From Bilabrum cf. latius (taxonomy: Eukaryota), in assembly GCA_965178125.1 (NCBI GenBank), contig OZ237748.1, positions 62,001 through 126,000 on the forward strand: 64,000 bases of DNA, in the 5' to 3' direction. This document shows positions 5,913 through 59,388 of the stretch, one piece after another. How positions within the stretch are numbered: position 1 is the first letter of the stretch; each line of letters starts with the position of its first letter. The position numbers and the translations under genes were made by a program. The notes under the pieces were generated by a model. The model made no database searches. It had not been told where the DNA came from and worked only from the letters and a program-made list of their open reading frames with translations.

Positions 5913-7199
5913 TCACTGCTACCCACCCGTCACACGCAGCTGCCTCACCTCGGCAAGCCGCAAGTACCTGTGGTACAGCAGAGGGTGCGCCTGGCTCAGC
6001 GCGCCGGGCTGCTGGGCCGAGGCCGCCACCAGAGCGCCTGCGCCCCCCTCCACCAGAGCAAGGGGCATCGTGGCCGAGGCATAGCTTACCAGCGCGATGG
6101 CAAGCAGACTCACCACAGACCCACGAGCCTGGGCGTCAAGAAACAGGCCGCTGCCAAGAGCCGCAGCTCCTGCCGCCGCCCATCCCGCGAACCCCAGCAG
6201 CCTGGGGGCGCAATCGTCACCCGCCGCCGCCACCGCCCCGCTCCTCTGCAGCGCCGCCCACGTCCCCTCCGCGGCCCGCACCCACGGCACACCGGTTGCA
6301 ACCGCCGCGCCCCACCCCAGCTGATGCCCCCTCCGCAGCACCGCCAGCGCCAGCCCGCGCACCCACAGGCAGCCGGTCCCCAGCCAGGACAGCGGGCCTG
6401 CACCGATGCACCCGCACAGGCCGCCGCTACCACCACCACCACCCCCGCCTCCCCGGGGCGTGCCTGCACTTGAGGGTCGCATGACCCCACCACCACCCCC
6501 CTGACCCTGACCCTGACCCTGTCCGCTCCCGAATACGTATTCCGGATCGTCCCACCCCATCTCCCCCGACCTCAGGCCCCCCGCACCCAGGGCGCGGCCC
6601 GCCTCCGCCCCCGCCTCCGCCGCGGCCCACGCCGGCGGTCCAACAAGCCCGAAGAGCCCAGCCGCCGCGGCGCTCCCCAGCGAGGGGCCCACGGCCTGTC
6701 CCACGATCGAGGCCACGTCCCGGTGCCCGATGGCCTGCTGCGCGCCCAGGGCCCGTGCCTCATCGATCGGAGCAGCAGACCGCAGGGACACGATCCGGTC
6801 CGCTGGGGTGCGGGGAGGGACGGCACCAGCACTAGCACCAGCGCCAGCGCCAGCGCCAGCGCCAGCGCCAGCGCCAGGCAGCGAGGGCGGCTGCACCGCT
6901 GAGCTCGTGCTCGAGCCTGCCCGGCGCTGCTCCCGGGATGCTGCTCCTGGCTCCGCCTCGCTGTCGCTCTCGCTGGCCATCAGCGCCGACCCGTGCCCCT
7001 CCCCGCCATCACTCGTCACACCGCCATCACTCGTCACACCCCCGTCGAGATCGCTGTCGTCGCCACCCCCCCTCGTCCTCGACTCCTCCCTCCCCGCCAT
7101 CATCAGGCCAAACTCCTCCTCCAGCGCAGCATCTAGAGCCCCATCCTCCCCATCCACATCCACGGTCCCATGATTCCCACGGCCACCTGCAGCGCCAAC

Positions 7200-7230
<31 letters not shown>

Positions 7231-8339
7231 CTGGCAGCTGCACCAGACCCTCCCACTGCAGCAAATACCGGCTTGCCGCCGTCCACGCCATGCCAGTTGC
7301 TACCGCCAGCCGACGCCAACGCACCATCGCCGGGCAAGGCACCCTGTGGACCCAATCTGCCACCTCCCAGCCCCTCCGCGCCCTCCAGCCTAAAGCCCCC
7401 CCCCCCATCCGCCCACTCCCCGGGGCCAGTCCCCGCCCCAGCCAGCGCAAGCCGCCGCGCCCCCGCCCCCGCCGCTGCCATGCCCAGCACGCTGCCCGCG
7501 GCCGCCCCCGCCCACCGCAGCACCCCCATCAGCAGCACCACGTTCAAGCCCCTCGCCATCGGGGTGAGACCCCCCGCCTCCAGAACATGAGCTAAGGCCA
7601 TCGACCACACCGCGACCACGACGCACCAGCACCCGCACACCCCCAGCGCCAGCCATATCAGCGGCCGGTGGCTCCCCGTGGACAGGGGATCTGCCGCCGC
7701 CCCCAGTGACAGCGCAGCAGCCGCCCGCCGGTCCCTTGCCCTGATCGCCCACAGGGCGTCACCCGCGATGATGACGAGGACGACCGAGGCCAGGAGCACG
7801 CGAGCCTGGGCGAGGAGCAGCAGGATCGCCACGGCGGCGAGAAGGGCGCCAGCAGCGAGCTGCAAGAAACCGAGCAAGAGGCCCCGGTGCGCCTGGGGGA
7901 GCCGGGCGAGCGCCGCAGCCACTCCCAGCCCGAACGTGGCCGCAAGTGGCGCGCTAGCCTGGAGCGTCGCGCGGAGTGTGTACCCCGAGTGGTCTGACAG
8001 CCAGGGCCTGCGGTGGCTCGGGTGGTCTTCCTCAGCGGGCTCTCCGCTGCCGTCGTCGTTCGTGCCTGCATCCCCTCCACCGGGATCCTGAGGCTGCCGG
8101 GGCTGTATACCGAGCTTGGTGATGCCGGCAAATGCTACCAACGCAATGCAGAATAAAAGTGATGCCAGGTAGGGAGTGTCCTGCGGATTGGAGTTGGCGA
8201 AAGGTCCAAGCAACGTCCAACGAATACGAGCAAAGAGCAAACTCCAGTCAGCGCTTCAGTTCGTCACTAGGCTGCTCACAATCCAAGACGGCACTATTCG
8301 AATTGACGACTCCTACGCTCTACTCTACCCGTTCCTCAT
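5913..8339 (-). CDS. Choline transporter-like (CTL/SLC44-type) multi-pass membrane protein; intron 8181..8279
   Basis: Multiple TM segments and CTL-like motifs GPSLGSAAAAGL and GVPWVRAAEGTWAAL. Exon 1 (8339..8280, two TAGs) is spliced via GTGAGC...CCGCAG to DTPYLASLLF. Ends TAG-CAG-TGA. Confidence 0.65.
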
Positions 8340-8495
8340 GGTGCTATTTGCTTCAAACATCCCAGGCCAGCACTCATGCATTGTAACGCGCACCTTTGTT
8401 CTCGATTGGTGAATACCGGGCTCTGATGTTGTGGTGTTTCTGCATTAATAAGCCCCCACAGGACCTTGTAATTAGTATCATAGACGGTCCCTGTG

Positions 8496-11400: not shown

Positions 11401-14400
11401 CGGTGCTGCAGGCCTGCGACAGCCGGCGGAGGGCTGGTCCAGGGAGCAACTGGCCGACGCAGTGGCCCCCGTGCCCCTGCCCGAGGCCGTGGCAGGCCGT
11501 TTGGCCGAGGAGGCCGACAGGAGGCAACGAGAGAGGGTGGCTCGGCTGCAGGCAGAGGCAGAGGCGGCGGCAGCGGCGGCTGCTGCGGGTGCTGCTGCGG
11601 GTGCTGGTGCGTCCGGGGAGGGTCTTGATGCGGGCCAGCAAGCGGCGGGAGCTGGAGCTGGGACCGAGGGTGAGGTGCAAGGACCCGAGTCTGGCGGTGG
11701 CGCTGGCGCTGGAGGGGGGCGCTCTGGTGCCGCACCAGCAGCAGAGGGGGAGGGCAGCGACAGCAAAGTAGAAGAGGGCGACTAGGAGGACGAGCACGAC
11801 GGTGGGGGCACAACCGGTGCTTCCACTGGTGCTTCCTCTGGTGCCGGTGAGTCGTCCGCAGCCGGCAATCAGCTCGCTAGTCGTGCCGTGGGAGGCCTAT
11901 CTCTCCTCGTCAAAGCAGTGGGTGGAGGCACCGCCCACATCGCACTGCCCCCGGGTGCAACGGCTGGTGATGCTCTAGGCCTGGCGATCGAGCAGCTGCC
12001 TGCTCTTCAGGAGAAACTCACGGCCAGCGGGCTGGAGCTGGGCGAGGCCCTGACATAGAGACGACTGGTGCTGCTGCACGCGGGCCAGAAGCAGGACCCG
12101 GGTGCCGACCTTCACGCGCTCGGTCTCGCCCAGGAATCCGCAGTGTTCGCCATGTGGATGCAGGCCGCTGCACCCTCCGGGCCACCGGCTGCTGAGCGCG
12201 GCTCGTCTGCCTCGAGCGGGGCAGAGGCCGGTGGCACCGGTGAAGGGGGGCAGGAGGAGGAGGAGGAGGACAGGGGCGAGGACGGCCTGGAGGAAGAGGC
12301 GGCCGGCGGTGATGGCGATGGAGCCGGGGGGGAGGAGGATGGAGAGGGGGGTGCGAGTGCAGTGGATGCGGAGGGAGGAGCGGGGGGCGAGCAGCAGCAG
12401 GAGGCAGAGGATGACGGTGCGACGGGCGCATTCCCGTACATGCTTACCAAGCCGCAGCTGATTGCGCAGGCCCAGCCAGGGTTCAGCGAGTCATTGAGGA
12501 ACGAGCGCATCCGCATCAGCCACAAGGGCTCAGTGGCCGAGAGCACCCGCACATGGTCCTCTGCGGCTCTCAGGGGAGAGCCGTTCAGCAGAGGCAGACG
12601 GTCATGGCTGGTGGCCATTCTCAGCGCGGAGCACGCGTGCGGGTGCGCCGTGGGACTGGCGGAGGCCTCTCGGTTCGACTTCCACAAGCAGAACCTGGGG
12701 GCGCAGGATGGGAGCTGGGCCTACTCCAAGACGGGCAAGAAGGGCGCGCACGGGCGCGGCTTCCTGTCCTTCGGGAAGGCATACAGGACTGGCGATGAGC
12801 TTGAGATCGACGTGGATCTGCTGGGGGGCGAGCTTAGGTTTTGGAGGAACGGAGAGCTGCAGAGCGGGGGCCCCGCCTGGTCCTCTGAGATCAAGGGGAG
12901 GTCCGTGCTGCCTGCGGTGTGCCTGGGGTCCAACACGGGGAACAGGCTGACTCGGGTGGCTGTGAGGGTGCCCCCGGTGAGGGCCTTTGATCCTGCCAGG
13001 TCGCACCACCGCATGCGCTTCGATGACGCGGGGTCCACGGCGTATAACGACGGCAAGTGGGCCACGGCCGTGGCGGCGCACGCGGGGATCTCCCAGGGAA
13101 CAATTGCCTTCAGCGTGAAGCTGACGGACGTGGAGTCCGGGGGCGGCGTGGCCATAGGCGTGGTTGACGGGTTCCTGTTTGACCACCGTCACGACAACCT
13201 GGGCGCCAGCAAGCACTCCTGGGCGTTCTCCAAGACGGGCAAGATCGGGCGCGGGAGGGGGTTCGAGCCCTATTCGCGAACATTCGGCGACGGCGACGTC
13301 ATCACGTGCCTGTGCGATGCCACGGCGGGTACTTTGCGGTTCTTCGTGAACGGCGTGGACCAGGGGTACGCCTTCTCCGCGGATGGGACCGCTTCTGGAT
13401 GCGATCCGGAGCTGAAAGGCAGGGTGCTCGTGCCTGCCGTGTGCCTCGGGTCCAGCACTGGTCACACCATGTGCCGGGTGCGGCTCATGCAGCAGGTTGT
13501 GATGCCCATCCTTCACTTCGATAGGTATACGGTCCGGAAGGGGGACGCCGGCGAGCCCATGGTCGCCTTCAACCGAGATGCAGCCCGGGCCGAGACCATG
13601 GGGGAGTGGACCACGGTCATGGCGCAGCACCCGGGGGTGAGGGACGGCTTCTTGACATTCGCGGTGAGGGTCGATTCAGCCGAATCCCACTGCGGGGCGG
13701 CCATCGGAGTGGCCGACGCAGTTCTATTCGAGCCGAAGCGTGCCAACCTGGGCGCCACCCCCAACTCCTGGGCCTACTCCAAGACGGGCAAGGCAGGCGA
13801 CGGCACCGGGACATTCAAGCCGTACGCTGAGAAATTCGCGTCGGGTGACGTCATCACCGTTGACTGTGACGTCAGCAAGGGCACGCTCCAGTACTTCAAG
13901 AACGGCATCCCGCTGGGCCTCGCCCCCGTGTCCCACTCGCTCAAGGGCAGAAGGCTTGTTCCTGGTGTGTGCATCGGGTCCAACCACCAGAGCAGGTACT
14001 CGGCGCTGTCACTGTGCCCCCCCTGCGCGGTGAGGTGGGACCAGAGGCTCTGCAATCGTCACATCCAGCTGGACGGTCCCCACGGGGCCTCGAGGGCATA
14101 CACGGACTACAAGTGGTGCACTGTCCTTGCCCAGCATCCGGGGGTGCGAGACGGCTGGCGCATGGCCTTCAAGGTGCTCGTGGGCCAGGCAGAGGCAGGG
14201 ATCGCCATCGGGCTGGCCGACCCGAGGTACTTTGACCCGCAGCAGCACAACCTGGGAGTGAACGGACACTCCTGGGCACTTTCCAAGAGCGGTAAGAGGT
14301 CGAGCGGGGAGGGATGGCAGACCTTCGCCAGCCGCCTCAGGCTCAAAGAAGGCGACGAGCTGGGCGTGTACGTGGATCTGAGGGACCCTGCCGGCCCCGC

Positions 14401-14683: not shown

Positions 14684-14719
14684 TAGAGCCAGCGACCGGT
14701 GGGGCCGACGCGTGATAGA
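14656..14719 (+). repeat. 32-bp tandem duplication spanning the kinase/SPRY stop codon
   Basis: GCCAGCGACCGGTGGGGCCGACGCGTGATAGA occurs twice, exactly. Confidence 0.9.
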
Positions 14720-18174: not shown

Positions 18175-21100
18175 TCACCGATCCAGCTCGCCGTCCCAGT
18201 GTGACAGCTGCTCGTGCTTCACCCATGCCAGGCGCTCTATGGCTCTTCTTGCCCTAGGCCCACGCACACCTCTAGATGTGCCAATCACGCCCACGCTCGA
18301 GTGTGATGGCTCGCCCACCATCCTGACCTGGTACTTGTTTCGGCTGCTGTCCGCCTTGACCACCACCGCACGGCAGGGCCTCGGCGCTGGCCGGCCCACC
18401 TGCTGATACTATGAACCAGCACCACCCATGTACGCCGGCACCGGCATCTCGATTCTTGGGCAATTCGCACGGTCTTCGCTTCCTACTTCCGCGCCAAGCC
18501 CGTCACTAGCACTCGTCACACTCACGATATCCCCCGGGTCGAACCGCTCCCTCACCTCAGGCATGGGCACCCCCTCCCTGACCGCCCCGTCGTCGAACTG
18601 AACCTTCAATCGACGCACAACCGGGCTGATGTGAAGCACCCGGCCTGGGTAGAACAGTCGCCTGGGCCCAAACCTGCACTCTAGCCTATCGCCTTTCCTC
18701 CAGTCGTCCTGCGCCTCTTGGAGTTGAAGGAGCCTATGCCTCCACTCGATGGATTGGCGGCGAGCACTAACCCGATAGGATGATACCTGCACACTCGAAT
18801 TGGTCCCGGCTCGGGCTGCTCTGACTTGCTGACTGTCGGCTTCTCCTGGAGGTGACGCTGCCTGCGTGGCCCGGTGGAATACATCGATTGAGGCCAGGGC
18901 GCCAGAGGCTGGGGCTTTTGAACTGGCAGCGCTCTCGTAGAGGTCAACATCTACTGCGGTTCCATGGTCTCGTGCGGGCCCATGTGCGGCTCGGGGCTCG
19001 GAAATAGCCGAGTGTGCTACGTTGCCTATGCCAGATCCACCAAGATGCGTGCCGCCATGAGCAATATCGGACCTCGATGCACACGTCACTGTGATTTCGC
19101 CTGCTCCTCTGCCAGACAGCAAATCAGTGTCTCCGCTCAGCAACCCGATCGATTCGTCGTCTTTACCCATAGACTAAGCCAGCACATCGCCCCTCAAGTG
19201 TTGCCGAGCCTCATCTGGCAGCGGTACGCGTGACCACCAGCAGTCGGAACATGATTCGGTCCGAGCCTTGGATCCGATACCTTCACTGCTGCGTGTTACG
19301 ACAGCACTAGCTGAAGGGCCTGTGCCATGGAATAGGGCCCTAACTAGGCATGCTCGCAGGAACCACACATATGGCACCCAGTCGCGACCAAACACCGGCG
19401 CCTACACAAGATTCCGACCTGCCCCGCTCGACTGGCCAAAGGATGCTGCAGGTGCACATTTGGTCGCACCCCCTACGTCTACAGAGCCCTCTGATATGGC
19501 CTATTTGAGCTCCTGGATCCCCCTTGCAATGGCTGCAGGTGGTAGTACCACGCCAAGCTAAAAGCAAATGTCCGCAAATCCCGCCTCGCTCACGTGCCCC
19601 GTGCCCAGCGGATCTGCAGACTGCAGGCAGACGAACCGATGGCTGGCTCCAATGGAAATGTGAAGCCTGCCTCCCTCGCTGGAAGCTCGCACCGCCACAC
19701 GCAGCGCGTCAACCAATGAATCTGCGACACGTGACATGTGCGGGTAGGCCACGTTGGGGTCGAATGTAGACAGATTATAGCCGGTGCTAGGGCCAGGCCC
19801 AGGGCTACCGCTCGCATGTCTCTCCATCCAATCCCCTCCGAAACCATGCCGCCGTGTCATGGTCTATATGCCCTCAAAATGTCCATGGCTGGCATGCGGC
19901 TGCTACTTACTATGTGTTCCATTTCGAACTGTTGTTCCAGCATCCTGCGCAGATCGCCCATCACCTCCCCCCACACCCGTCTCGCCACTCAATCCACCCC
20001 CCCTGACCACCTGGACCACGTCAGTTTCCGCCACGCCCCTCTCCACCATTGGCTCCGAGTCCATCCGCCTACCAACATCACCCGCCCGCATAACGTGCAG
20101 GTACTCAACGGCTAGTTCCCTTCCCCCCGTCCTGGGGTTGATCCCGATCGATTGCACCCTCCCGCGCCTCAGCCTGCCCGGGTCCCTCCTCCACGGCACG
20201 AGCACAACATCGCCGAGCTGGATCCCGAGCCCAGGGGCAGCAACATCGGTAGCTCCAGTGCCATGCGAGTTGTCGAACTGCATGGGGGAAGTTGCATGCC
20301 CGAGGTCAGCCTCGCTCACGCCCAGCTCATGCGCCCCCGAGCGGTGGTAGCTCACGTGGTACCGCGCCGTACCACTGGCCCTGCCTCTGGGCACCACTTG
20401 CTCCACGCGGGCGAGACACCACAGTTTACCATATCTGCACGCTACCTCCACCCAGTCCCCTGCTGCGAACCTTGGTCGCCTGCGCTGGCCTGGTCCGAAA
20501 CTGGCCCTGGCCCGCCTGAGGCTCTCGTAGACTCTTGCTGCTTCACTTGCAGGCCTCCCAGCTTGCTATTCCTGCTTCCCGGCTGATTTCAATTCCCCGT
20601 GCGGGCTACTAGATTGGTCGCTAGCATCACACTGTCGCTAAATCGCTTGATTGTTCCCTCCAGCCTCTCCGCTCTCTGCAGAGGACTGGCCAGGGGATGT
20701 CGGTCCCTCGGGGGCAAGCTGGGCTCCGCCCGACGTATCAATCTGCACCTGTGGACTGATGTATTCGCAAGTTGCGGTCAATTTCTCCGGGTTGGTTTGC
20801 GATATAGTGGCATGGATAATCTCAGGAACTTGCGACTCGCTCTACTGCTGGCCTGTCACCATGCTGCACCCCCCTGTGTCGGTCCCAGGGTGTATGTCCA
20901 GGGGGGGAGATACACGGCTTGCATCCTCGCTAGTCTTGCCCTGCTGGTCTAGGCGCTTGTTGCCCTGGCTATCTGTGGATGCGTTCTGGGGAGATTCGAC
21001 GGGCGCGTCGTGGCCTCCTTCTGTCGCTGCCTTAGGGTGCACTGCCTGAAGGTGCACTGCACCGCTGTCGTCACCGTCACTGCTGACATCCATCGATTCT

Positions 21101-21795: not shown

Positions 21796-24700
21796 ATGGC
21801 AAGCGGCTAGGCTAGCATGAGCAATCCATCTAATGATGGGAATAGGCGCCGAGCGGTTGGGACGCTCGGCATACTCGGTAGTACATGCGCTGCAACTGTG
21901 AAGCACGTGCAGCGCAGGTGGTACACTTGCATTGGGGTGTCATCACAGCGACAATCTGACGATTGCTGCACTTGCAAAGTCAGATTTGGTCGCTCTTGCA
22001 TAACGTTGGCTGTCGTGATACTTCTTCTTGCTGGTCTCGTTTCGATAGCGGCGGAGGCGATTCGGCTCGCACGATTGGGCGACAGCGGCCTGGGCTCGCT
22101 CCACGGACCGACCGCTGCGGGCGCGTCAGCAAGTAGACCGGCTGCGTTTCTCTCTGATACCCCCGAGCTGGCGGACAGCGGTGCCCTCCTCGAGCTCCAA
22201 TCCACCCGTGGAGCCAAGCCGAGCTCCCCCGGGGTAGGCATCCCCACCGACACCCTGCTGCAGCAGCAGCAGCAGTAGAAGCAGGCCGCCAGCGAGCATG
22301 TCTCAAGCTCAGGCTCAAGCTGGCTGTATGGTGGCCCCGATATTGCGCCTGCCTATGGCGGGCCGGGCTTCGGGACAGTCCGCGTTTCACAGGCAGGGCA
22401 GGGACAGGGGCAGGGGCAGGACCAGGGTTAGTCTTCAGTTCAGCCCATGCATGTCGTTGTGGCTGCGGGCGACGCTTCAGGCGGTAGGACTGGCGGCGGC
22501 ATGCGACCACTGACACGCTCATCGCGGGACCTAGCGGAGCGATGGCCGCTGTGGGAGCGTGTGACGATTGCGTTGGGCTAGGCTGTAGACCGTGTTTGGC
22601 ACATGGCGGCTTCTTTGCCTGCACGTTTCCACTCATCTTCATCTTCGGATGCTGCTGCTGCACCGGCCGTGGATCCAGTCCTGGACGTGCTCGAGCCGAT
22701 GGGAGAGGCTGCAAGCGCGGGTGACTACGACAGGGCAGCAAAGCTGGGGAACAGCGGAAGGGGCCGTGGACGGGGCGGTGCCATGGGCAGAGACAGGGGG
22801 GTGGAGGCTCGAGCGGACAACCTGGGCGGTCTATCTTTCGAGTCTCGTTGGGCCCCCGAGCCGATTGACGTGGTGTACACGTGGGTGAACGGGAGCGATC
22901 CCCTGTGGCTGGCGCAGCTGAGGAGATTCAGGGCCATGGATTTGAGGAGGTAGAGCATGGCACAGGGTGAAGATGGAGGTGAAGGTGAAGACGGAGGTAA
23001 AGATGAAGGTGATGGTGGTGGTGGCGGTAGCCAAGGCACTGACAAGCAGGGTCGCGATCATGGTGAGGATGCAAGAATGGAAGGTGGGCACATTTCAGGG
23101 TCAGGCGACGCTGACTCCAACTCGCCTTGCAGCCGCCTGGGTATCGCATCGGCTGATCAAACTGGTAATGGAAGTGCTTTAGCGCCATTTACGTCGCATG
23201 GGTTGCATGCCACGGGCGCGATTCAGGCGGGTCTTGCGCTTACAGTGTCGCGGCAGGTGGGTCGCGCGGTGGTGGCCAGCGCGGTAGAGGCTCTGCGATT
23301 AAATGCATCGGGGGAGGCATCAGGTCCGTGGGACGCGGGGCTTGTGGAGGCCATGGTCGTGCGGAGTATGGGAGGACAGCTGCTGGGTGGGGTGCCGGGT
23401 GATGCGGCATTGGAAGGCGCGGCTGCGGGAGATGAACCGATGGATGGCAGAAGCAACAGGTTCAATGAGTCGAAGGAAGGTTCCTTGGAGCCGCAGTGCG
23501 GTGCAAATGGTGTGAAAGTCGCGGGCATCACGGATGCCTCCTGTCAGTGGGTAGGGGACGAGATGGCGTGCGAGGCACTGGCCCGGTTGGTGGCAAGGGT
23601 GCCTGCTGCGGCGCATGACCAAGAGCAGGGGAATGAGGATGGAAATGAGGACGGGAACGCTGCCAGTGATGAGGAATCCGCCACCTCAAGCAGCAGCACA
23701 AACAGCGGCGATGAGCGCGCCACAGGTGGCAGACCCAGCGATGGCAGCACAGACCAAGCAGATGCAGCCGTCGCAATGAGCAGCCCGTTTCCCGCCTTGA
23801 ACAGTAGCTCGTGTGTTCGTATGAATGTTTCCATTGCTGTGACTCTGCTTGGTCACGCGTGGTAGGGGTCCTGGTGGCCGGGTGCAGTGCACGCTGACAC
23901 ACCTCAGGAGGTGCAAGGCCGGCTACTGGTGGCAGCTGGATTCAGCGGAAGGAGCAGGCAGTCTGATGCAAGGTGGGCGGGCGTGCTGGAGGCAGGGGTG
24001 GGGTGGGTTAGGGACCGTGTGAATCGCACAATTAGGGCCGCAGATGCAGATGCAATGGAGGTGGAGATGCATACCGAGAATGGGCAGGTCCCGTCTGATG
24101 ATTCCGACTGGCAGCAGCAGCAGCAGGATGAGGAGGAGGAGGAGCGACATGGCTACTCCCACTTGGCTTGGATGTCCAGCACCGAGCAGCCCATGCCAGG
24201 TATACGGAAGGAAGCAGAGGAAGAAGGAGAAGAGCCGAGCGAGCATGGCCTTGGGGGAGCGCACAGCCATGGATCTGCCGGGCATATTGGCGGGGCGGAT
24301 AGCAGCAGAAGCGAGGGCAGGTCGGTCCATTGCGACGGCCCCGTGACTTGCGAGCAGAGCAGGTTCTGCCTGGAAGGCGACATGGAGCTGCACGAGTCCG
24401 AGGCACGTGTGACGAGTGCGATCTGCGGGGCGGCGCGGCATGCGACCAATGCATGGGAGGCGTTCAGCGCCCGGGAGGCCGCCGTGGAGGAGAGGCAGGC
24501 GGCGTGCGAAATGTGGAGGGAGGGCGAGGAGGCCAGCGCACGCGGGGGCGAAGGTGAGAGGGGCATCGATGACAGCACTCAGCAAGGGGATGACAAAGCG
24601 GGCGAGGGGGAGGGGGGCGATGATGCGGCCTCGGCAAGCCGGTACCGAGACAGCAACGAGCTCAAGTATTCGATGCGATCTCTCTTCAAGTACGCCCCTT

Positions 24701-39820: not shown

Positions 39821-39923
39821 TGCTGGTGGCGAAGGGGCTGGTGACCATGGAGATGGTGGAGCATGAGAGCCGTCGATGATGCTGGTGGCGAAGGGGCTGG
39901 TGACCATAGAGATGGTGGAGCAT
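39760..39923 (+). repeat. 59-bp unit, ~2.8 copies, spanning the stop of paralog 2
   Basis: Same unit as the 47928..49638 array. Confidence 0.9.
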
Positions 39924-40704
39924 TCGTGAATCTGTCTTTGTCGATTCATCAAGTTGGAAGCCCAACAGTTTTTGAACTTCCACGGAGGCTCGATGACGTC
40001 CTGTGAGGTTCTATAGGGTTCTATGGGGTTCGATCAAGATGGGACCGCCGTGTTGCAGGCTGATGGCAAGCAAGAATCTGCTCCGAAAAGGGGCGCCAGA
40101 CGCACGCACAGCACAGTGCACAGTAGCGCACGATTGTTTGCACTCGTCACAGGGCCGGGTGTGCAGGGCGACCGGTGGCCCGTGCCCAGCCCAACCTCTG
40201 ACGCGAATCCAGGATAGCCTGGTTGGCTTGACTTTGGCAGATGCATATTTATTGTTTATGTTACATTCATCCATTGCATGGTCGTTCCATATGCACGGAA
40301 TCAGGGGTTCATGCATCGGTAGTGGAGCCAATCGAAACTTGCATGACAGCCAGCTTTTTGACGCTTGCCAATCCAACTTGTCTCGTACACGTCGAGTCCA
40401 TGTTGATAAAGGAACATTGGCGGCATACATGTGGTGTTTATGCTCCAGAAAAAGGTTCATTCGCTTGTCACTGCGGCTGGTGTAAGCTGCGACCAATCCG
40501 GTCGCACGATCTTCGGGTTCCGATTGGTTCGTTGGGTTCGTACCCTGCTTTCCGTCGGCGATGCGAACAAGAATTTGCTCTGATTACGATAGTTTAGTAC
40601 AAGTGGTGAAATTGAGAGGACATTTTGATCAGATATCAGCGCTCATATATTGTTGGAAGCTTTGATCACGTTGTCCAAGGTCACAGAAAATCAAAAGTTG
40701 CTGC

Positions 40705-43700
40705 ATGGGATGTGGCTGGTCGGTGCAACCTCAAGCTGCATCGGTTTCGCAGCCAGAAGAGCAATCTCTGAACGTAAGCTAGATCTACTGCATGATTAAG
40801 CAAGCCACTGCCATTACGGGTCTCTCCTCCTAGCACTTGTAACTATCCTGCCCCAATAGCGAGCCACCGGATACACAACTCGCAGCGATCCAACTAGCAC
40901 GCATGCACTAAGAAGGTGATGTGTCACGACCAGGCTAATATTGGCTCAAGTTCCGATCCCACGCTGTCAGTTGTTATTTCGAGGGAAGTAGGCCGGCCTA
41001 AAGGGTCGCATGCGGGCCTGTCTCAGCCAAGCCTAAACCTAGAGGCTAGATCTACTTGTAAGCCGCTTGAAGTCAACGACAGGCATGCGCCAAATGAAAG
41101 AACATTCAAGTACTGGGTCATGGGAATCAGGCATACCAAAGGGTCAAGACCTTTCTTTGCTCCATCGCACGGCGAGGCATTCTCGCTGAAGGCTCACTTG
41201 GGCAGGCTTGCGGAATACCGGGGCGGGCCGGCTTGGCACGATGAAATTGTAGACTCCACGAAGATTCGCCACGACCGGAGGCGCATCACTTCCAGGCAAG
41301 CAAGTACGAAGTTGCAGGGATCTTCAGCTGGGCAGCACACCTCGTCCATCGCGCCGTTGCAGCAGTCAAGGCCCAGCGAGGCCTTCAAGAAACTGCTGCT
41401 GCAAGTCGCCGTCACCCAGCAGCCAGACCAGCCCAGCTCTGCCAGCATTCTGCTCACTCTGGGAAGGATCAGGGCCGAGGCCCAGCATGTTGCAGAAATG
41501 GCCACGGATACCGACGGGCATGGGCGCGACAGGACGGTCGCATTGACTGCCGGCAAATCCGCGCAGGAGGTCGCGGAAATGGCCTGGTAGGAACACCACT
41601 GCAAGCCGAGCTCCAGCACGACCAGTGCAGGCTGCACGCGGGCATTGAGAAGCTCTGCAGCTGCAACGACTCGAGCGCAGGGACGAGCAAGAGCGAGTGC
41701 CCGTCGCACGCGCCTTCGATTGCTCCCGGTGGCGATGGGGGGGAGCGCAGAACCGCACGTTGAGATTGCCGGGGGACATCCCATGTACGAGGTAGTGCCC
41801 GGTGAAGGTTCCTCCTCGCCGAAGGTTCGCCAGGAGTGCTCCCGATATGGCATCCTGCACTCTGCGACTCACGCGTGGAGGAGTCTGGGGGTGGCCATGG
41901 CAGTGGCGAGGACTGCATTGCACTGCAGAGAGGACCGGGCGGAATCGCAAGGCCAGCCTCGGGGCAACGGTGGCGTGCGTGCGCTGTTAGGCCCATCATC
42001 TTCCCCACGCAAACAGTATTCTACTTACGTCCAGGCCAAGCATGAAGGCACAGGTCAACGGCACGAGCACGAGCACGAGCACGAGCAGCATCAGGACCGT
42101 GGGGGACATGTGGAAGGGATCCCGAAAGGCCGCTCGAATGCCGCGCTCGTCATAGAGTACGTACATCCGACCGCAGTGCACCCTGTTTCGAGTGTGACGA
42201 GTGCACCGGGACCTCCTCGATAGGCCTCCTCCACGCCCCCGCGGGCAGCAGCAGCAGCTCAAGCAGCAGCAGCTGCACCAGCAGCAGCTGCAGGGGGGAC
42301 CTCGTCTTCCTCTTCGATTGCGGCCGGGGAAATCTCTAGGCTAAGGAACACTGACAGGCGCGTATCCGTGCAGCTAGATCATGATTAGCTGGGGATTCGT
42401 GAGAAGGATACTGGCACCAAGTTGGAGGAGCATGAGGGGACTCGAGGCCAGCAGCAGCGGGATGGGCATGCACAGCTTGAAAGGTGCCCGAGCATGCGCT
42501 AGGACTGTGCGGCCTCTCGTGCTTAGGATCCGACCAGCGAAAGGATCGTGGTGCTAGCGTCTAGATCTGCACGAGGTCTGGGTGGGGCATCGAGCTCGAG
42601 TGCACTGCACGCTGGTGCACCCAGCTCCCCCCTCCGGCCCGCCTGGAGGGGCAGCAGGGCCCTCAGCAACAGCAGCGGAGGGCAGATCGGCAGGGATTCG
42701 CGCCACCCGGAAGAGGCAGGGAGCGCCAGGAGCGGGTACAGCACAGCATCGACTCGCGCGTCCAGCCTCCCTCGGAGGCATCGTCCTAGAGACATCGACA
42801 TGCCACTGCTGTTCACTGGCCGGGATATTATGCATGGCGGCAAGGGGGTGCTGCTGCTGCACCCCAACGTGAGAAAGCACGGAATGGAAGCAAACGGGCA
42901 GCGGCGGCGCAGCGCGTCGAATGTCACCAGGGGGGGGAGCTTGCGGCAGAGGTTAGACATGAGGAGCGCTGCCGGCCAATTAAAATCAAACCCACCGTTA
43001 GAACCGTCTATTGCCTGCAGAAAGGGCGGGAACAGGGCAAGTAGCCTGGGAAGGCGGTCGGACAGAGATGCTATGCAGCGCCGGGGTCGCAGAAAGAACG
43101 AGCCCGAATAGTTGCGGAAGTAGAACCCACCAGGAGACGGGTGCAATAATGTCGACCAAAGCGTCACCATCGCCATACAGACTTTGGCTGGCGGGTCTTT
43201 GCAGGACGAGCCGACACCCATGCCTGCGGCGCCGGTTCGGCTGCATGTATTTGAGAAATCCACCGGTGGATTAGCGGCAGGGCAGGCCGTAGAGCTGGAG
43301 GTACCCATCGAGGAGTCTGGCGCGCTTCGGCACAGATGGGACAGTCACCATGTTCACAGTACGAGCGTCAATGACGGCATCGAGTACCGTCGGCTGGTGG
43401 CTCGCGAAATCATCACTGCTGGCCCGCTTGGCGATGATACCCGACCCGGCGAAATCCCAACTTTCGGCACTTCCGGGATTTCGGTGATTGGTACCCCTCC
43501 GGATCGGGTCGAGATTTGAAGTCTAAATGAATACCAATTAAGCAATTGTTAATTGATATGGTTTGGTAGGTCTACTAACTACGTATTAGGCGGCTAGCTA
43601 GCCGCTAGAGTATTCCATTGATGCTTTGTGTGGCGTAGCAAAAAATTTGCTCTGACGATGACCCGTTTTTTTCAAAGCTCTGTTTCTGCCGAACTAATAG

Positions 43701-49638: not shown

Positions 49639-49926
49639 GATCGAAGTATCGCTGGGGGTCAATGGCATTTTGACTATCCGGATCCAGTAGAATCTAATTA
49701 ATCGCATCCGATGATAAGGTTATTAAGCAGGGATACAGGGTACGTCAGGCACACCACCGTGACAAAGATTCTGAGTCGGTCAGCATTAACCTTTTTAATA
49801 TACGGTAGATCCTGATTCTATACACAAGGTTGTAAAAATCCGCAACCGTTTGTTCTGTGCATTCTGGATTAACGGAGCTAACACGGATGCATGGGCGCAG
49901 TGGGTTTTCGAGACCGGATCCCCGAC

Positions 49927-51858
49927 TCACTGCCTCTCCAGCTGCTGCTCTGCCTGCGTACCCCCCTCTCCTGCTTCCTGCTGCCTCTTTCGCAGCACCC
50001 CCTCGATGAAAAATTCGCCAGCCTTGTAGCTGGACCTGACCAGCGGGCCTGACGCGACGTACAGGAAGCCCATCTTCTTCGCTTCCTCCCCCAGTGCATC
50101 GAACTCTGCAGGGGGCACGTACCTCCTCACGGGATGGTGCCTCCCAGTGGGCCTCAGGTACTGCCCCAGGGTCACCACATCGACCCCCGAGGATCTGCAG
50201 TCGCGCATGGTCTGAAGCACCTGCTCCTCCGTCTCCCCCAGCCCGAGCATGATGCTCGTCTTGGTCACCAGCGAAGGCTGCGCTACTTTGGCCCTTTCCA
50301 GCACCTTGAGGCTCTGCTGGTACCCTGCCCGCCTGTCCCTGACCCTGGCCTGGAGGGCCTCCACGGTCTCCACGTTGTGCGCTGCGGTGTGACGAGTGAG
50401 TTGGATATGCGTGTGTGACGAGTGAGGAGCAGGGAACCGAACGCGCTAGCGCAGCCGAGCGCGCGACGTGCAGCCAAAACGGCCAGCAGCGGCAGCGGCA
50501 GCCGTTTCTAGATGGCAAGAACCTGATGACCCCCCCCTTCTCTGTACTCTGCTGCACCATGTTCAAATTGCATATACCTATGTATCTTCTCACCGAACAC
50601 ATCCAGGCCGCTCCTTGCCACCTGATCGATGAGCTCGTGCTCTCCCCTGAAATCGGGTGTGAGGGCTTCCACCAGCATCTTGGGATCCCGCTCCTTGATG
50701 GCTCCGATCGTCGAGGCGAAATGCCTCGCGCCCTGGTCCGGCAGGTCGTCACGGTCCACTGACGTCAGTACCACGTACCCGAGTCCCCAACGGGTCACTG
50801 CCTCCGCCACGTTGGCGGGCTCCGAGGGGTCCAGTGGGGGCGGTGCGTTGCTCGTCCTTACGGCGCAGAAGGAGCAGCCTCGTGTGCACGTGTCTCCCAT
50901 GATCTGCGCGTGGGAAAACGGAACGAGGAGAAGTAGAGACGTGAGCATCATCATGGTGGGGATGGGCGGGATACAGAGGAGGGCCGCCAGCCAAAGGAGC
51001 GGAGAGGGCGGGATACAGAGTGTGACGAGAACCGTGCGAGCAGGGATACAGAGTGTGACGAGAACCGTGCGAGCAGGGATACAGAGTGAGCATGAGCAGG
51101 ACGCGAGCGGGGAGGCGGGCCCTGCTCGACGCAGCGCAATGATGATACAGCAGCATAATGCAAGCATGCATTTGCGAATTAATGTTTCTCACCATGACGG
51201 TCGCGGTGGCTGTGCCCTCCTCCCCGCCCCAGCACTCCCCGATGTTCGGGCAACGAGCTTCCTCACACACTGTCGCAAGGTTGAGTTCCTTCACCGTGCG
51301 CGTCAAGCGCTCGAACGCCTGCTTGTTTTCGCCCGCTGGAGTGCTAATGCGGAGCCAGTCCGGCTTTGGCCCCGGCCCTGCGAGCCCGGCAGGGACAGAG
51401 CACCCGGCCGCGGAGGCCGCGCCGATCTGGGCCGCGCCGATCTGGGCCGCGTCTGCCGCGCGCTCCCGGCGAGGGTTCACCCTCACAGAACCTGGAAATG
51501 CACCTTTGATAGCTTCGTCGCCGTGGTCTCGCAAAATCTTCGATGCGCCGCCGTCTGCTTGGGCGAAATCGCGCAGTGACGGTGCGGCCGAAGCTTCTGG
51601 CCTTGCGTTGCCTGCACTATCAGAGCGCAATGCTTCTCGAAGCTGCGCCAGTCTGGATTGTTTGCTTGCTTTTGTTCGAACCTACTGAGCCTGCCCAACC
51701 CGCGCCGTGCTGATGATGTTGCGTTGCTACTGAATCTCGGTAAATGACGAAAGCGACGGAGGCACGTGTGGGGCTGCGAGCACACTTTGGCGCGCCAATC
51801 CGCTATCAAGTGCGGCAAGTATGTGAGATGCAGAGCGTCGACTGACTCGGTGCCGCAT
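49927..51858 (-). CDS. LIAS: Lipoyl synthase, mitochondrial (radical SAM); introns 50904..51192 and 50382..50593
   Basis: Motifs [53 protein letters not shown] and [14 protein letters not shown]...CAG introns. The Arg/Ser-rich presequence contains TAGs at 51727 (CAG-TAG-CAA) and 51682. Ends TGA. The start could be an upstream ATG (51900 or 51915). Confidence 0.93.
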
Positions 51859-52237
51859 TTTGATGCAAGTATGTGCTGTAGGACGTGAACAAGCGAACAT
51901 ATTACTGAGGTTCATCTTCGAAGTTGGATCGTCATTCGTTCGTGATCACTGATCAGGTGATTCGGTACAAGCAGACCATTCCATTCCATTCATGAGGATA
52001 CTTCGTTACAAGCAAAGCAGTGTGTATCCAAGCCGCAGAATGTGGAAGGGGTCGCGAAACCACCCGGCCAAAGCGCGCCCGATTCACGTTACTCTGCCAA
52101 GAGAAGACCACGACCACTGGCAGGCAAACACCACCGGCAAGGCCTCCAACCGACAGCATCGGCGACGCGTCAGCGAGGAGCGAGAAAGATACCTTACACG
52201 TATACCAGACACATCATCTCGCAGGGCCAGACGAGGC

Positions 52238-54862: not shown

Positions 54863-55329
54863 GTTCGCCCTGTGGTGTATGGTGTAAAGCTGGCTTCGAA
54901 AACGGCTCTGGTGCGATAGCAAATACCAGATTATCGGTTTCATAAAAATCACTGTATAAATCCAAATAGCGTGCTAAATAGTATTCTGGTTTTTAGCAGC
55001 GCCCCTGCAAGGTATCCGAGTATACAGCGCCACCATGCCTTGAGCGTTCTGGGGAACCGATGGCCCTTCGAATCTGAAATAGCGGGTGCGGGAAACGCTC
55101 CAAGGCGCAGGAGCAGCTGTTTCACCCGCCAAGGGCGCGCTACCTCCGCATTCGACTGGAAGCGAATGGTCGCATGGGTCGCATCGTGTAGTACAAATAT
55201 CCAGCAGCCCATTGTTTTGCGGCTGAGCTGATTTGGTCACGACGTCCACGATACCGGGGAAAGTCTCCAAAAAGCCAGCAATATGACTTCGATACCCTTC
55301 GCCAACTCAACCCCCCCGTGTGCGCATCG

Positions 55330-58300
55330 TCAGAAATCGTCGTCCTCGAACGCATCCGCGGGCACCGAAGGGAGGCCGACCCACACTCGCCCCGTCCTCC
55401 TCTGCCAGCCCCTCTCCCTCAGGGCGGTTGCAACCGCAACGCGCCAGCCCGCCGCGGGGTCCCATCGCACCCCCCTGCCGCCGGTCTGCTCGACGCCCGG
55501 CGGCCCCGCCTCACTCGTCACACCGTTGCCCTCCACCCAGCAGGGGAACACGCCCAGCTGGTACGTCCCCTTTGGGCTGACGCTCACCCCGTCGGATAAC
55601 CGGAACAAGAACCCGTGCCTGGGGCACCGGACACATGCCCCCCCCCCCCACTCCTCGATGTCACCCCCCGCCAGGTTGCCCCCCGCGTGGGGACACTTTG
55701 GCGCGCTCGCCATTGCGCGGCGCCCCTTGCGGAACACCACCACGTCAGTCCCCATGACCCGCACCCTGGTCCCGAGCTCCTCGTTCCCACCTGAACCAGC
55801 ACCAGCACCAGCACCAGCACCAGCACCTGCGGCGGATTTGGATGCACCTCCGCACGCTCCTGCCGGAATCGATCCCGCGACTCCGCGGCTGGCTCTGAAC
55901 CGACTGAACCGAGGGGTGGCGATTCCCTTGGCCGCAGCAGAGGACCGCGCCGCTGCAACGGGCCGCCCATGTTCCGCAACCGGTGCGCGGCGCCGCCTCA
56001 CGGCCCCGGTGGCCGTGAACTCGTACACGGGGGCCGGCTGCATCGCGGCATCCTTCAGGTCCTGTATGACGAGTGCGGTCGGGAAGTAGGGCACCCCGTC
56101 GGGGCCCATTGCGAACGACTCGGAGTCAGAAACGTCGGGGCCTGCTGTCCCCGACGCATCAGTCTCATCGCACTCGTCACACTCCTCCAGCCGCAGCCGT
56201 ACCCGCGGATCGCCCGAGGATGGCGACGACGAGGAAGCCGGCTGCAGCAGCACGGGCAAGGCCGAGGAGGAGGGTGATGACGAGCACGGGGCCGTGCCCT
56301 GTTTCTGGGCATCTGTGTGACGAGTGCGCCGGCGCTGGGGGCCCAGCGACCACGGGCTCTCGGTGTGACGATGATGATGGCCTGCCGCCCCTCCTGCACT
56401 CCCATTCCCCCGGCGAGGTGTGACGAGTGAGGTACCCGCCTACCTGGTACTGCCCCGCGGAGACCCCGCACTCGTCACATCGCTGCCCCCCCCTACGCTC
56501 CCTTCCCCCCCGCCAGCCCCCACACCCCCAACCCCAACCCCAGCACCCAGCCCGAGCCCCAGCCCCAGCCCCAGCCCCAGCCCCAGTCCGAGCATAGCCC
56601 CGCCCCCATCCTCTCCGCACTCATCACCTCCGCTGGCATACCCACCGGGGGCCGGCCCAGACAGCGAATCAGCCGTCTGGCCCCTGGGTCTGTGCGTGCG
56701 CAGGTCTCCGGATCCGGAGCCAGATCTCGATCTGGACCTAGCATCGGCACCGTCCCAATCCCCACCTGCTCCTCTGGCTCCACCACCGGCGTGTGTCACA
56801 CTCGTCACACCAGCTCTCGCCTCCGCGCCCCAGTCCACGCGATCCTCCCCTCCCGCGCTGCTCCACCCGTGGACCCGCCACTGCTCACTCGTCACACCGC
56901 CACCGAACCCGTCCGTGGAGCCGCTCCCCCACAGCATCCCGCTCCTCCTCGCCAGTGCCCTGACTCGCTCCTTCGCCCTCCTCCCCTCCTCAGGGGTCTG
57001 CCCCCGCCGGTGGGGACCTCGGGCACCCGGCTCCGAGTCGGTGTCGCTGTAGCCGTGATCCGATCCGTGATCCGATCCGTCCCACAGGCCCCCTTCCCCT
57101 TCCCCGCTGGATGCAGACGCCCGATGGTGTGACGAGTGCACGAAAGACGATGAGTCGTCCAGGAGAACAAGAGGCGACGGGGCCTGGCCATTGCCACCAC
57201 CTTCACCACCATCACCATCCTTGCTGCTACTGCTGGGCTCTTCACTCGTCACATCATCGCCGGCGACAGGCCCTGACTCTCCCGGTGCGTCGCTGTGCTT
57301 CCTCCGACGGGTGCCTTGGCTGCCCTCGCTGTCCGGCGAGGGCGAGTGTGACGAGTGCCAGAGCTCCCCCGCTGCCTCCGGAGGCAGAGAGCAGGGCGAC
57401 CGTGAGCCGGCGGGCGAGTGTGACGAGTGCACGGGGTCCATGGCCATCGCGGCGGCGGCTGGGGGCAGCAGCCTAGGGGCCTGCATGGAAGCGGAACCTT
57501 TCAAATGCGCGGCGTCGTTCCCGCTCAGGAACCCCACCCCGAGTCCGGCTGACACGGTGGGAGGAGGCAGTCCCAGCCCTGCTCCGATCGATCCCCGTGA
57601 GGCATGCACGCCCGCCCCTGCACTGGGCCCGGCAGCGGCAGCACCTGCTTTCGCTTCCACTCCCACCGCATCCAGTGCTGGCCCAGGCTGCAGCATTCCC
57701 GTCCCCGCCACGCCCATATCCATGCCCATATCCATGCCCATGCCCATGCCAGGGAACCGTCCCGTAACATGCCCGCCCACCGGACCCACCCATCCCCGCA
57801 CTCCAAACACGGTGGACCACGGCGAGCCCGGGCGGCGACTGTGTGACGAGTGCGCGAGCGACGGTGCACCGGTGCGTGGTCCCTGCACCTGCCCCTGCCT
57901 CCGGTGCTGTTCCCCACCGTGATCACGATCCAACGGCATGCCTCCGTCTCTATCGCCCCTTCCCTGGATCGACGAGGCAGTGCCGCCGCCTTGCGATCCC
58001 GGGGGCGATTGTGCTCCGGCGCCCGCGCCCGCATACGTCGCAGCCGGCCGCCGGCTAGTGCCCTCGGACGGGCCGCCGCTCGCCCACGACGACCCGGTAG
58101 GTTCCGCAATTGCACCGGCGCCGCGCAATCGCCGCGCCACCGCCGCTGCAGCCCTCCTCTGCCTCCGGATCGTCCTCTGGCGAGCGTCCTCACCACAGTG
58201 CGATGCACCCGCCCCTCTCGGCACACCGTGGATCGTCGTCTCTTGCCGATCTCCGTTGCTGCGCCCCTGGTGGCGGGCGCGTGACGAGCGATCGTGGTGT

Positions 58301-59388
58301 GACGAGTGGGAATCTGGTGCTCTGAGGGGCGACTGGCCGCCCACTGGCACTGCAAGCGGCGGGTACTTCCGTCCCACCCCATTCATACCGCTCCCATCTC
58401 CCTTCCGACTCGGCGGAGTGCTGCTGCTGCTGCTGCCGCTATTGCTATTGCTGCTGCCAATGCTGCTGCTGCTGCCATTGCCGCCCATGGTCCCAGACTG
58501 CTTACTGTGGGTGTCCAGAGGGACTGTTCCCTGGGGTTCTCCACTCGTCACACGAGGAGGGGTCCTGGGACTCGGAGCTGCAGCCGCACCCTGCCGCTGC
58601 GGGGACGTCTGCCGGAAGGCCGATGCCGCGCTTTGCCCCGGCACCCATCCCTGCCCCCGCCCCTGCCCCCGCCCCTGCCTCTGCCCCTGTGCCTGTGGCT
58701 ACCCCCAGCCTCCAAACCCCAGGCCTGTATCTCCCTCTTCCTCCCGATGCTGCCTACGCTGCTGCTAGTTCGCGCCCCGCTCACCCCCGCCCCCGGGTGG
58801 GGTCCTCGTCAGGGGGCTGCCAGGGGTCGGCAGCCCCCTGTTTCCCTCGGGTTTCGACTGACCTTCTTGGATAGAGGCAGAGCTGGTGGTGGCAGAACGA
58901 TGATGCCGCGGCGGCGTGACGTACCCCCTGCCGGCGCCGCTGGTTCTTGTTGTTGCTGCTGCCGCGCCCGTGCTCACTCTCGCCCGGGGAGGCGATGCTC
59001 GAGACCAGGACAGCCGCTGCTGCTCGGATGCAATCGCGAGCGGCGGGGTCGCGAAAGAAGTCTATGATTCCAAACTGTGCTAGAAATGATTCTGCCGCTC
59101 TGGTGACCACCGAATCGGTTTGGGCGCGGCCAGAGTGCCTATTGCGCTCTTGATTTGCGATGCAACCGGTAGTTGCTTGTCCGACTCTCCTTGCACAGCG
59201 CTGGTGTTTATGGCCTTACTGGCCTGCAGCACGTGGCCTTGCACTGCATTGCGTGCCGCTGCCTGTTTGGCGATCGTGCGGTCAAGTATGCTCTCGCCAG
59301 CTGTCGAGTCTGCATGCTCGGCTTGTTGAGGCTTCTCGCGAGCGCCATTCTGACAGCGATCAGGGCCGGTTCCCGATGGCGCTGCCAT
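55330..59388 (-). CDS. Large disordered protein with a C-terminal Rieske [2Fe-2S] ferredoxin domain, ~1350 aa
   Basis: CPHAGGNL...CVRCPRHGFLFRLSDG Rieske motif. ORFs 59080.., 58765.., 56440.. and 55330.. share one frame and are separated only by TAG. Ends TGA. The start (MAAPSG) is inferred. Confidence 0.7.

Follow-up and report, generated by a model that had tools for sequence, protein, structure and literature searches.

The 64,000-nucleotide stretch of Bilabrum cf. latius contig OZ237748.1 analysed here (positions 62,001 to 126,000 of the forward strand in assembly GCA_965178125.1; hereafter the window) carries many dispersed copies of a ten-letter word, GTGACGAGTG, that in most cases forms part of the 12-mer GTGTGACGAGTG and that is a discrete, exact and young-looking unit acting as DNA. 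The explanation that we tentatively favour, and to which we grant somewhat less than an even chance, is that this 12-bp, GTG-bounded unit has spread at the DNA level by copying and insertion and has been filtered by selection in exons. By kind it is an over-represented short genomic word. What sets it apart is its presence as a non-palindromic 12-mer in a eukaryote and its in-frame colonisation of exons. In bacteria, hyper-abundant exact words are a familiar phenomenon, whereas eukaryotic examples are rare and poorly understood. The window is eukaryotic: its transcripts are spliced with GT..AG introns, as seen in RNA-like contigs of three public runs that were taken as RNA because their contigs are spliced (none is recorded as RNA), and its Pfam matches comprise SF-assemblin, SPRY, protein kinase, Stealth CR2 and CR4, the N-terminal domain of lipoyl synthase and Rieske. 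The SF-assemblin match and a TGTAA ahead of one mapped poly(A) site are features of chlorophyte green algae and, taken with the introns, suggest a chlorophyte-like eukaryote; a protein atlas listed no taxa for the SPRY ORF.

All 28 copies listed by the initial annotation hold exact GTGACGAGTG or its reverse complement, with 13 on the plus and 15 on the minus strand, against an expectation of 0.19 and a maximum of 2 in 100 dinucleotide-preserving shuffles. Its statement that most copies extend further was also borne out, given that 24 of the 28 reach GTGTGACGAGTG. Within one mismatch of this 12-mer lie 36 sites (24 exact and 12 one-off, four of the latter retaining the exact 10-mer) compared to 0.33 expected, and the 24 exact 12-mers stand against 0.008 to 0.23 expected under Markov models of orders 1 to 5 that were trained on the window with the word copies left in. 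Codon usage does not account for the excess either. In a codon-aware control, as the initial annotation had called for, shuffling within 44 non-overlapping open reading frames (ORFs) of at least 150 amino acids, which preserves codons but not dipeptides, yielded 0.12 copies on average and never more than 2 over 300 shuffles, versus 25 copies observed inside the same ORFs. Ranked by dispersal, the word is the most widely dispersed 10-, 11- and 12-letter word of the window, above CAG-type microsatellites and a 59-bp satellite.

The unit is sharply bounded. Across the 28 aligned copies each position within the 12-mer is near-invariant, with information of about 2 bits per position inside and at most 0.35 bits just outside (positions -3 and +1). 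The base directly 3' of the word is C in 14 copies, A in nine, G in four and T in one, while the base 5' of it is G in 13 of 28 and A in 6 of 28. No longer flank is common to all 28 copies or to those of the dense cluster at 55.5 to 58.6 kb, and the lack of any relatedness outside the 12-mer rules out an origin from one longer dispersed repeat, which the initial annotation had considered. In its layout, GTGTGACGAGTG consists of a 6-bp centre, TGACGA, between two GTG triplets. Counting both strands, TGACGA occurs 76 times, of which 25 are between identical triplets, and since these triplets are GTG in 24 of the 25 cases they are part of the unit or of a fixed target and not a variable target-site duplication. 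The 12-mer differs from its reverse complement CACTCGTCACAC and its halves are not mutual inverted repeats, so the description of a non-palindromic word on both strands holds.

Sites with zero, one, two and three mismatches to the 12-mer number 24, 12, 10 and 55, respectively, against random values of roughly 0.01, 0.4, 6 and 59 by our own arithmetic from the Markov figure for the exact word, which indicates a family of about 40 members with some 0.5 changes each and a Poisson-like spread. Near-cognate sites with two or three mismatches are thus found at about random frequency and show no depletion, and the central CG is hit in just one of the 12 one-off variants, with no sign of extra CpG decay. 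A sequencing or assembly artefact is unlikely because contigs from three coded studies match the parts of the window that they cover without any difference.

The initial annotation had proposed a DNA-level signal, and this is supported by copies on both strands, by both orientations within single genes, by a verified intron and by the absence of synonymous spellings. The intronic placement rests on spliced RNA contigs of two runs, which skip the GT..AG intron 50382..50593 of the minus-strand lipoyl synthase gene; the two exact 12-mers inside it (50387..50398 and 50413..50424, both on the plus strand and 26 nt apart) are antisense to the transcript, and the first lies 5 nt from the 3' splice junction. 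Similarly, the span of the plus-strand Stealth gene (CR2 at ca. 24.6 to 24.9 kb, CR4 at ca. 29.8 to 29.9 kb) holds two sense and two antisense copies, all of them exact 12-mers. One sense copy (24407..24418, plus strand) is in the VTS frame of the Stealth CR2 ORF and likely exonic, and the other (26207..26218, plus strand) lies in sequence without codon periodicity and forms a 14-nt pair with an upstream near-copy whose central CG is changed to TG (26193..26204, plus strand). The antisense copies are at 27221..27232 and, again without codon periodicity, at 28011..28022 (both minus strand). Such mixed orientations within single transcription units speak against an RNA-level role. With regard to spelling, all six exact HSSH tetrapeptides in ORFs of at least 200 amino acids are written as CACTCGTCACAC, next to one CG-to-TG variant, and 14 of 17 VTS tripeptides in these ORFs outside the 59-bp satellite are written as GTGACGAGT. 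Since synonymous spellings of the peptides are absent from this set of ORFs, the conserved thing is DNA and not peptide; the GGT and AGT codons involved end in T, and the coding third positions of this genome are 80 to 90% G+C.

Independence of reading frame, another property assigned by the initial annotation, stood with regard to the intron copies and to the occurrence of both orientations, but it does not extend to the firmest coding ORFs, in which all eight forward copies read VTS and all five reverse copies read HSSH. Likewise, of the varied readings that it had named, VTS and HSSH are found in firm coding sequence, whereas CDEC, LVT and TRHT come from probable non-coding stretches and are confined to the verified intron, to stretches of short frames and to the interval 56150 to 56440. 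The forward word has two stop-free frames (GTG-TGA creates a stop in the third) and the reverse word has three, so that, with open frames taken as equally likely, the chance of the observed frames would be (1/2)^8 x (1/3)^5 or about 2e-5 by our arithmetic. In solid coding sequence, neither the stop frame nor the CDEC frame has a single copy. The 13 fixed readings break down into five of five forward VTS and five of five reverse HSSH in a 752-codon frame, two of two VTS in a 778-codon frame and one of one VTS in a Rieske exon. The two long frames (56440..58698 and 5919..8255, both on the minus strand) exceed the longest frames of all 1000 shuffles (maxima of 683 and 663 codons) and look real.

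The 752-codon frame is a low-complexity sequence with a GC content of about 0.70. Its forward copies on the minus strand comprise the exact 12-mers at 56799..56810 and 56886..56897, which read GVTS, and at 58542..58553, which reads (R)VTS, as well as two exact 10-mers in one-off 12-mers starting with ATG (56469..56480 and 57243..57254), which are in the VTS frame. Its reverse copies, all exact 12-mers on the plus strand that read HSSH on the coding strand, are located at 57127..57138, 57346..57357, 57418..57429, 57841..57852 and 58297..58308. The neighbours at 57340 to 57358 and 57412 to 57430 share a few extra flank bases, six of them upstream of the word. A single in-frame stop (56440 to 56442) separates the 752-codon frame from a 369-codon frame that ends in the Rieske domain. 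The resulting 1,122 codons hold just this one stop, which points to a single gene whose intron is most likely the interval 56150 to 56440. This interval adjoins the stop and contains three exact 12-mers in mutually inconsistent frames: 56171..56182 (minus strand), in the CDEC frame of a long ORF and probably intronic, and 56315..56326 and 56418..56429 (plus strand), both probably non-coding, the latter forming an inverted pair with the copy at 56469, with 39 nt between them.

Homologs of the 778-codon frame match its residues 22 to 288 and 521 to 778 in one frame, and as one of them (P0007) carries a Pfam choline transporter domain, the product is predicted to be a choline-transporter-like protein. 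Two exact 12-mers on the minus strand (7010..7021 and 7028..7039), which form an 18-nt tandem pair and both read GVTS, encode GGVTSDGGVTSDGG at residues 405 to 418 in a low-complexity loop that is about 117 residues longer than in P0007. These copies are therefore found inside an ORF that is collinear with its homologs on both sides, the arrangement expected of an in-frame intragenic repeat. A further exact 12-mer in coding sequence (55512..55523, minus strand, reading GVTS) is located at the start of a variable loop of the Rieske domain, for which a homolog at 57 to 65% identity has a different and longer sequence. No excess of VTS or HSSH was detected in homolog proteins P0003 to P0044, and protein searches with the SF-assemblin ORF and the 752-codon ORF, run with length limits, gave no matches. 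The simplest reading of the frames is that DNA units arrive in all of them and that selection keeps those that are harmless.

Accumulation in unconstrained sequence, as had been suggested, is reflected in the density of copies, which rises with local GC content from 0 per kb below 0.50 over 0.11 to 0.17 at 0.50 to 0.60 and 0.36 at 0.60 to 0.65 to 1.0 above 0.65. Half of all copies (14, in both orientations) fall within 3 kb of low-complexity sequence, 11 of 28 lie in probable non-coding sequence, and strongly periodic, well-expressed genes have no copy or merely a one-off copy. Spacing is irregular and the strands are intermixed along 51 kb; orientation follows local GC skew for 19 of 28 copies at flanks of 50 nt and not at all at 250 nt or more, which is not significant. 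While 23 of the 28 ten-mer copies are solitary, five participate in three short tandems with periods of 18, 14 and 26 nt that have the core in common (7010/7028; 26207 with the near-copy at 26193; 50387/50413). Between 42203 and 50387, a span that covers an AT-rich island, there is no copy. The initial annotation was thus right that this island is free of the word, but the label of a transposon that it used finds no support in a Pfam domain or terminal repeats.

The same word is present in environmental DNA. A metagenome scan for two 12-mers within 0 to 30 nt of each other returned at least 120 loci. Among the matches listed, 16 contigs of one id prefix (97,036 nt, GC content 0.57, eukaryote-like split genes) contain at least 55 exact 12-mers at no fewer than 30 separate sites, 14 of which are not forced by the search pattern, and two contigs of another prefix resemble them. 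As in the window, the copies in the 16 contigs occur in both orientations within unrelated flanks and are preceded by G and followed by C or A and rarely by T, and no DNA is common to the window and the environmental contigs beyond the word itself. In the short tandems of these contigs, as in the three tandem sites of the window, the 12-mer stays fixed and the spacer changes, with periods of 14, 15, 17, 18, 21 and 42 nt, and the environmental contigs also show the core at periods of 12 and 34 nt. Among the matches listed at loci with a GC content of at least 0.53, a set that mixes in unrelated organisms, forward copies in ORFs of at least 200 amino acids read GVTS 23 times and CDEC never, and reverse copies read HSSH five times, LVT seven times and TRHT five times. 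The forward frame filter therefore replicates in environmental loci and the exclusive HSSH reading does not.

Most of the scanned loci listed are unrelated to this phenomenon, being one-strand local minisatellites of varied GC content or members of one low-GC repeat family. The latter, a paired-word repeat, includes loci L001, L018, L027, L029, L031, L033, L034 and L049 (GC content 0.45 to 0.56) and likewise L064, L079, L095, L097, L098, L108, L110 and others; its members come from few id prefixes, are 80 to 99% alike and probably represent a satellite of some host genome. High-GC arrays of GTGACGA/GTGACGT heptamers, often arranged as inverted pairs (L010, L044, L060, L069, L077 and L093), contain the 10-mer by construction and form a different repeat family. 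Two further arrays of a 9-nt unit, (GTGACGAGT)n, with similar flanks and a GC content of 0.63 to 0.68 (L007:1152-1215 and L082:2181-2508) are not the same phenomenon, though the 12-mer corresponds to 1.33 of their units: we rejected a continuation of the 9-nt period by the window copies, as only 6 of 28 are preceded by A and 1 of 28 is followed by T. In viral contigs, two near-identical loci with local tandem arrays in one ORF were not informative.

If the word has indeed spread by copying and insertion, GTGTGACGAGTG would multiply in a GC-rich, intron-bearing nuclear genome through DNA synthesis and integration in either orientation and would not result from point mutations that approach an optimum for protein, RNA or codons. 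A gain of 12 bp (or of 9 bp together with a duplicated GTG) preserves the reading frame, so that copies could settle not only in introns and spacers but also in exons. There, selection would clear those that the protein does not tolerate, such as the GTG-TGA stop or the CDEC reading that adds two cysteines, and the survivors would be seen as the tetrapeptides GVTS and HSSH in disordered protein loops and tails. Short tandem arrays with variable spacers may likewise be seeded by copies. We infer an origin by gain of the whole unit, adding 9 or 12 bp, because a complex 12-mer cannot recur by chance, because the random near-cognate pool (about six per 64 kb) is too small and undepleted, and because the word has edges as sharp as a copied unit would have.

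Given the identical GTG ends of the word, our preferred guess for the agent is templated synthesis of short patches, either in the repair of breaks or upon switching of the replication template. These ends might serve as microhomology for entering and leaving the template at any GTG, so that each templated patch would bring a net gain of 9 bp and keep the frame, and more copies would make a better template in a self-reinforcing manner. An element-encoded enzyme is equally possible as the agent of spread. The templated-repair model agrees with the local clustering of 14 copies in both orientations and with the extra flank bases common to neighbouring copies.

Several points weigh against a spread by copying and insertion. 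Templated repair should favour any sequence bounded by a 3-nt repeat equally, which leaves the choice of this word unexplained, and conservation decays symmetrically on both sides in k-mer counts, without any sign of a target-derived GTG. No empty site turned up that would turn the deduced insertion, with its geometry of 9 or 12 bp, into an observed one: near-identical environmental contig pairs (L111/L114 and others) show no presence/absence difference of a unit, and the four runs that cover 49800 to 64000, which apparently represent one strain, have no indel at any copy. The genome sample amounts to 64 kb, and the environmental contigs may stem from the same species as the window, so that their support may not be independent; moreover, the variable readings of their reverse copies are at odds with the strict HSSH filter seen in the window. 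The further-reaching idea that the word is a self-propagating "nano-repeat", which would spread through break-repair synthesis or a dedicated sequence-specific enzyme, colonise exons in frame and seed minisatellites, is possible and in our view doubtful. If self-propagating, a 12-bp unit would be the smallest propagating DNA unit known to us.

Among the alternatives, the one that survives best is a functional double-stranded DNA site, recognised by a binding protein, methyltransferase or repair/recombination factor and kept by selection or biased-repair drive, though we consider it rather unlikely. Such a site would readily explain the very sharp edges, the twofold excess of exact over one-off copies, the occupation of both strands irrespective of transcription, the rarity of a T directly after the word (1 of 28) and the recurrence in environmental contigs of the word together with its weak flank preferences; the copies in exons would simply be the ones that the protein can accommodate. 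However, copies accumulate in the least constrained sequence (14 within 3 kb) and are missing from highly expressed periodic genes, their spacing is irregular and the strands are intermixed. Sites with two or three mismatches are close to random frequency instead of being depleted as conversion drive predicts, and about six random near-cognates per 64 kb are too few to feed some 40 copies in a stepwise manner. The word is also non-palindromic, unlike typical words linked to methyltransferases.

Still less probable are scars of mobile elements, that is, the solo termini of a transposon family with high activity now or in the past, or footprints left by its excision or recombination. A precedent is named in a figure legend of one report (PMC4081816), the copies are discrete, clustered, in both orientations and of a young, uniform age spectrum like that of a transposon burst, and the 3-nt direct repeat at the ends of the word resembles a target-site duplication. 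Yet the near-exclusive use of GTG among identical triplets (24 of 25) excludes an ordinary target duplication unless the target is always GTG, the two word halves lack inverted-repeat symmetry, and a longer conserved element adjoins none of the copies in the window or in related contigs. Nor do copies occur at the borders of the AT-rich island, the sole candidate element that the window offers.

As a third alternative, which we deem improbable, the word could be a minisatellite core that provokes slippage or unequal exchange, with single copies as collapsed arrays. The three tandems of different period (18, 14 and 26 nt) that share the core in the window and the same core at periods of 12 to 42 nt in environmental contigs would be in line with this idea, but the tandem frequency in the metagenome is inflated because the search pattern selected tandem pairs, 23 of the 28 window copies stand alone, and a collapse of arrays leaves the presence of a complex 12-mer at dozens of unrelated loci unexplained. 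Finally, a role at the RNA or protein level, as a splicing signal, small-RNA target or selected GVTS/HSSH peptide, is highly improbable and largely refuted by orientation and spelling: it could draw on the fixed readings in coding ORFs, on the copy that ends 5 nt from a 3' splice junction and on the GTGA that forward copies followed by A offer as a resemblance to a 5' splice site, but both orientations occur inside single transcription units, none of the five RNA-supported introns splices at the word, the peptides have no synonymous spellings, 11 of 28 copies are probably non-coding and the window has no match to an Rfam family.

Compared to known systems, the word comes close to a scattered repeat of the Ustilago maydis type, which is likewise short, exact, present in many copies of a eukaryotic nuclear genome, not part of a longer repeat and without known function. 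The two differ in sequence, length and organism group (the window has SF-assemblin and abundant spliceosomal introns), and only the word has many copies inside ORFs in fixed frames. The initial annotation had drawn an analogy to HIP1, Chi and uptake sequences, which is apt for an over-represented short word but fails with regard to the lack of a palindrome, the lack of strand polarity and the undepleted near-cognates. HIP1 is an 8-bp palindrome of cyanobacteria that the literature links to a methyltransferase site. Like HIP1, the word is a hyper-abundant exact oligonucleotide of coding and non-coding DNA far above codon-aware expectation, but it is a 12-bp eukaryotic non-palindrome concentrated in unconstrained sequence. 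Chi sites and DNA uptake sequences are bacterial and are polar to replication or tied to uptake machinery; the eukaryotic host of the word has no known machinery of this kind. These non-palindromic 8- to 12-mers are over-represented genome-wide and act as DNA as the word does, yet its strands are intermixed (13 plus, 15 minus) in a eukaryote, and polarity in the manner of Chi is absent along 51 kb of a window that is too short for replication arms.

Vertebrate minisatellite cores resemble the word in that one short core is common to arrays of different unit length at many loci, but they are a loose consensus inside arrays whereas the word copies are mostly solitary and exact. The palindromic elements of Rickettsia are also selfish repeats tolerated in permissive parts of proteins with the frame kept; however, they are bacterial, palindromic and 100 to 150 bp long, while the word has 12 bp and no secondary structure of its own. 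The body of a miniature inverted-repeat transposable element or other transposable element with terminal inverted repeats was not detected, as there is no conservation past the 12-mer. The accounts of polymerase theta and synthesis-dependent microhomology-mediated end joining in PMC4912351 and PMC2943611 describe short patches, bounded by microhomology, that are copied in cis or trans and in either orientation. With its identical GTG ends, the word would fit this geometry. Known templated insertions copy whatever is close to the break, and we know of no case in which one templated patch has become a genome-wide family. Penelope-like elements of green algae are described as preferring microsatellite targets, but no link to the word emerged from what that source offers on them (PMC8557442).

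In open-access main texts, the word appears among the matches listed only as part of primers or oligonucleotides, and these texts yielded no account of a word of this kind from algae or any other eukaryotes. The word is unusually tractable, being short, sharply bounded and apparently young (about 0.5 changes per copy), and because it is visible in introns, spacers and exons, mutation input can be separated from selective filtering in one data set. If insertion is true, the copies would report naturally on a pathway of repair or transposition and would be a new source of low-complexity protein sequence and minisatellites; if a protein reads the word instead, eukaryotes would have a counterpart of HIP1 or Chi. 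On the practical side, such words break or mis-join de Bruijn assemblies, as visible in chimeric contig joints at copies, and they may also mislead gene finders that rely on open frames rich in GC. Contigs of the public runs over 49800 to 64000 form spurious joints at or beside word copies and also at CCATGC and TGC microsatellites. Several joints beside copies (e.g., from 50399 to 58281) have short sides, look like other loci and were not used.

The remaining copies of the word are scattered across the window. Exact 12-mers are found on the minus strand at 18510..18521, in the VTS frame of a 254-amino-acid ORF of uncertain coding status, and at 37059..37070 and 37175..37186, among short ORFs only and probably non-coding, as well as on the plus strand at 42192..42203 in the VTS frame of a 210-amino-acid ORF. 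Two exact 10-mers belong to one-off 12-mers, one starting with GGG (33162..33173, plus strand) in the VTS frame of a 442-amino-acid ORF and one starting with CTG (40141..40152, minus strand) in probably non-coding sequence. Near-copies with one mismatch, in addition to the one at 26193, comprise GTGTGACGGGTG (5924..5935, minus strand), GTGTGACCAGTG (13456..13467, minus strand) within the strongly periodic SPRY-domain ORF, GTGTGACGATTG twice on the plus strand (22559..22570 and 27653..27664), GTGTGACGAGTC (27721..27732, minus strand), GTATGACGAGTG (56064..56075, plus strand) and GTGCGACGAGTG (62313..62324, plus strand). A 33-nt tandem repeat of 2.4 copies (51010 to 51088) within the RNA-verified intron 50904 to 51192 has a unit in which the word's first ten letters precede AAC.

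The AT-rich island at ca. 43400 to 46800 has a GC content of 0.34 to 0.46 in a window of 0.61. None of its seven ORFs shows a Pfam domain and it has no terminal or inverted repeats; with no copy inside or at its borders either, it was rejected as a source element of the word. The 59-bp satellite (47928 to 49641) consists of 29 copies at 98% identity and leaves all three minus-strand frames open across the array, and 2.8 copies of nearly the same unit form an array 8 kb upstream (39760 to 39923).

RNA coverage of 55.0 to 58.3 kb is low or uneven and includes contigs that stem from other places. At lower coordinates, a spliced and highly covered minus-strand transcript (51912 to 54772) has a poly(A) site at 52002 that is preceded by TGTAA, while a second 3' end has no clear TGTAA. 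The strongest codon-like periodicity of this region (52350 to 53100) coincides with a minus-strand frame broken by a stop at 53102 and with an open plus-strand frame of 594 amino acids. Other tandem repeats of the window include 7.4 copies of a 66-bp unit at 38687 to 39174 and eight copies of a 27-bp unit at 28335 to 28551 in the Stealth gene span, which show strong third-position GC periodicity and may be coding.

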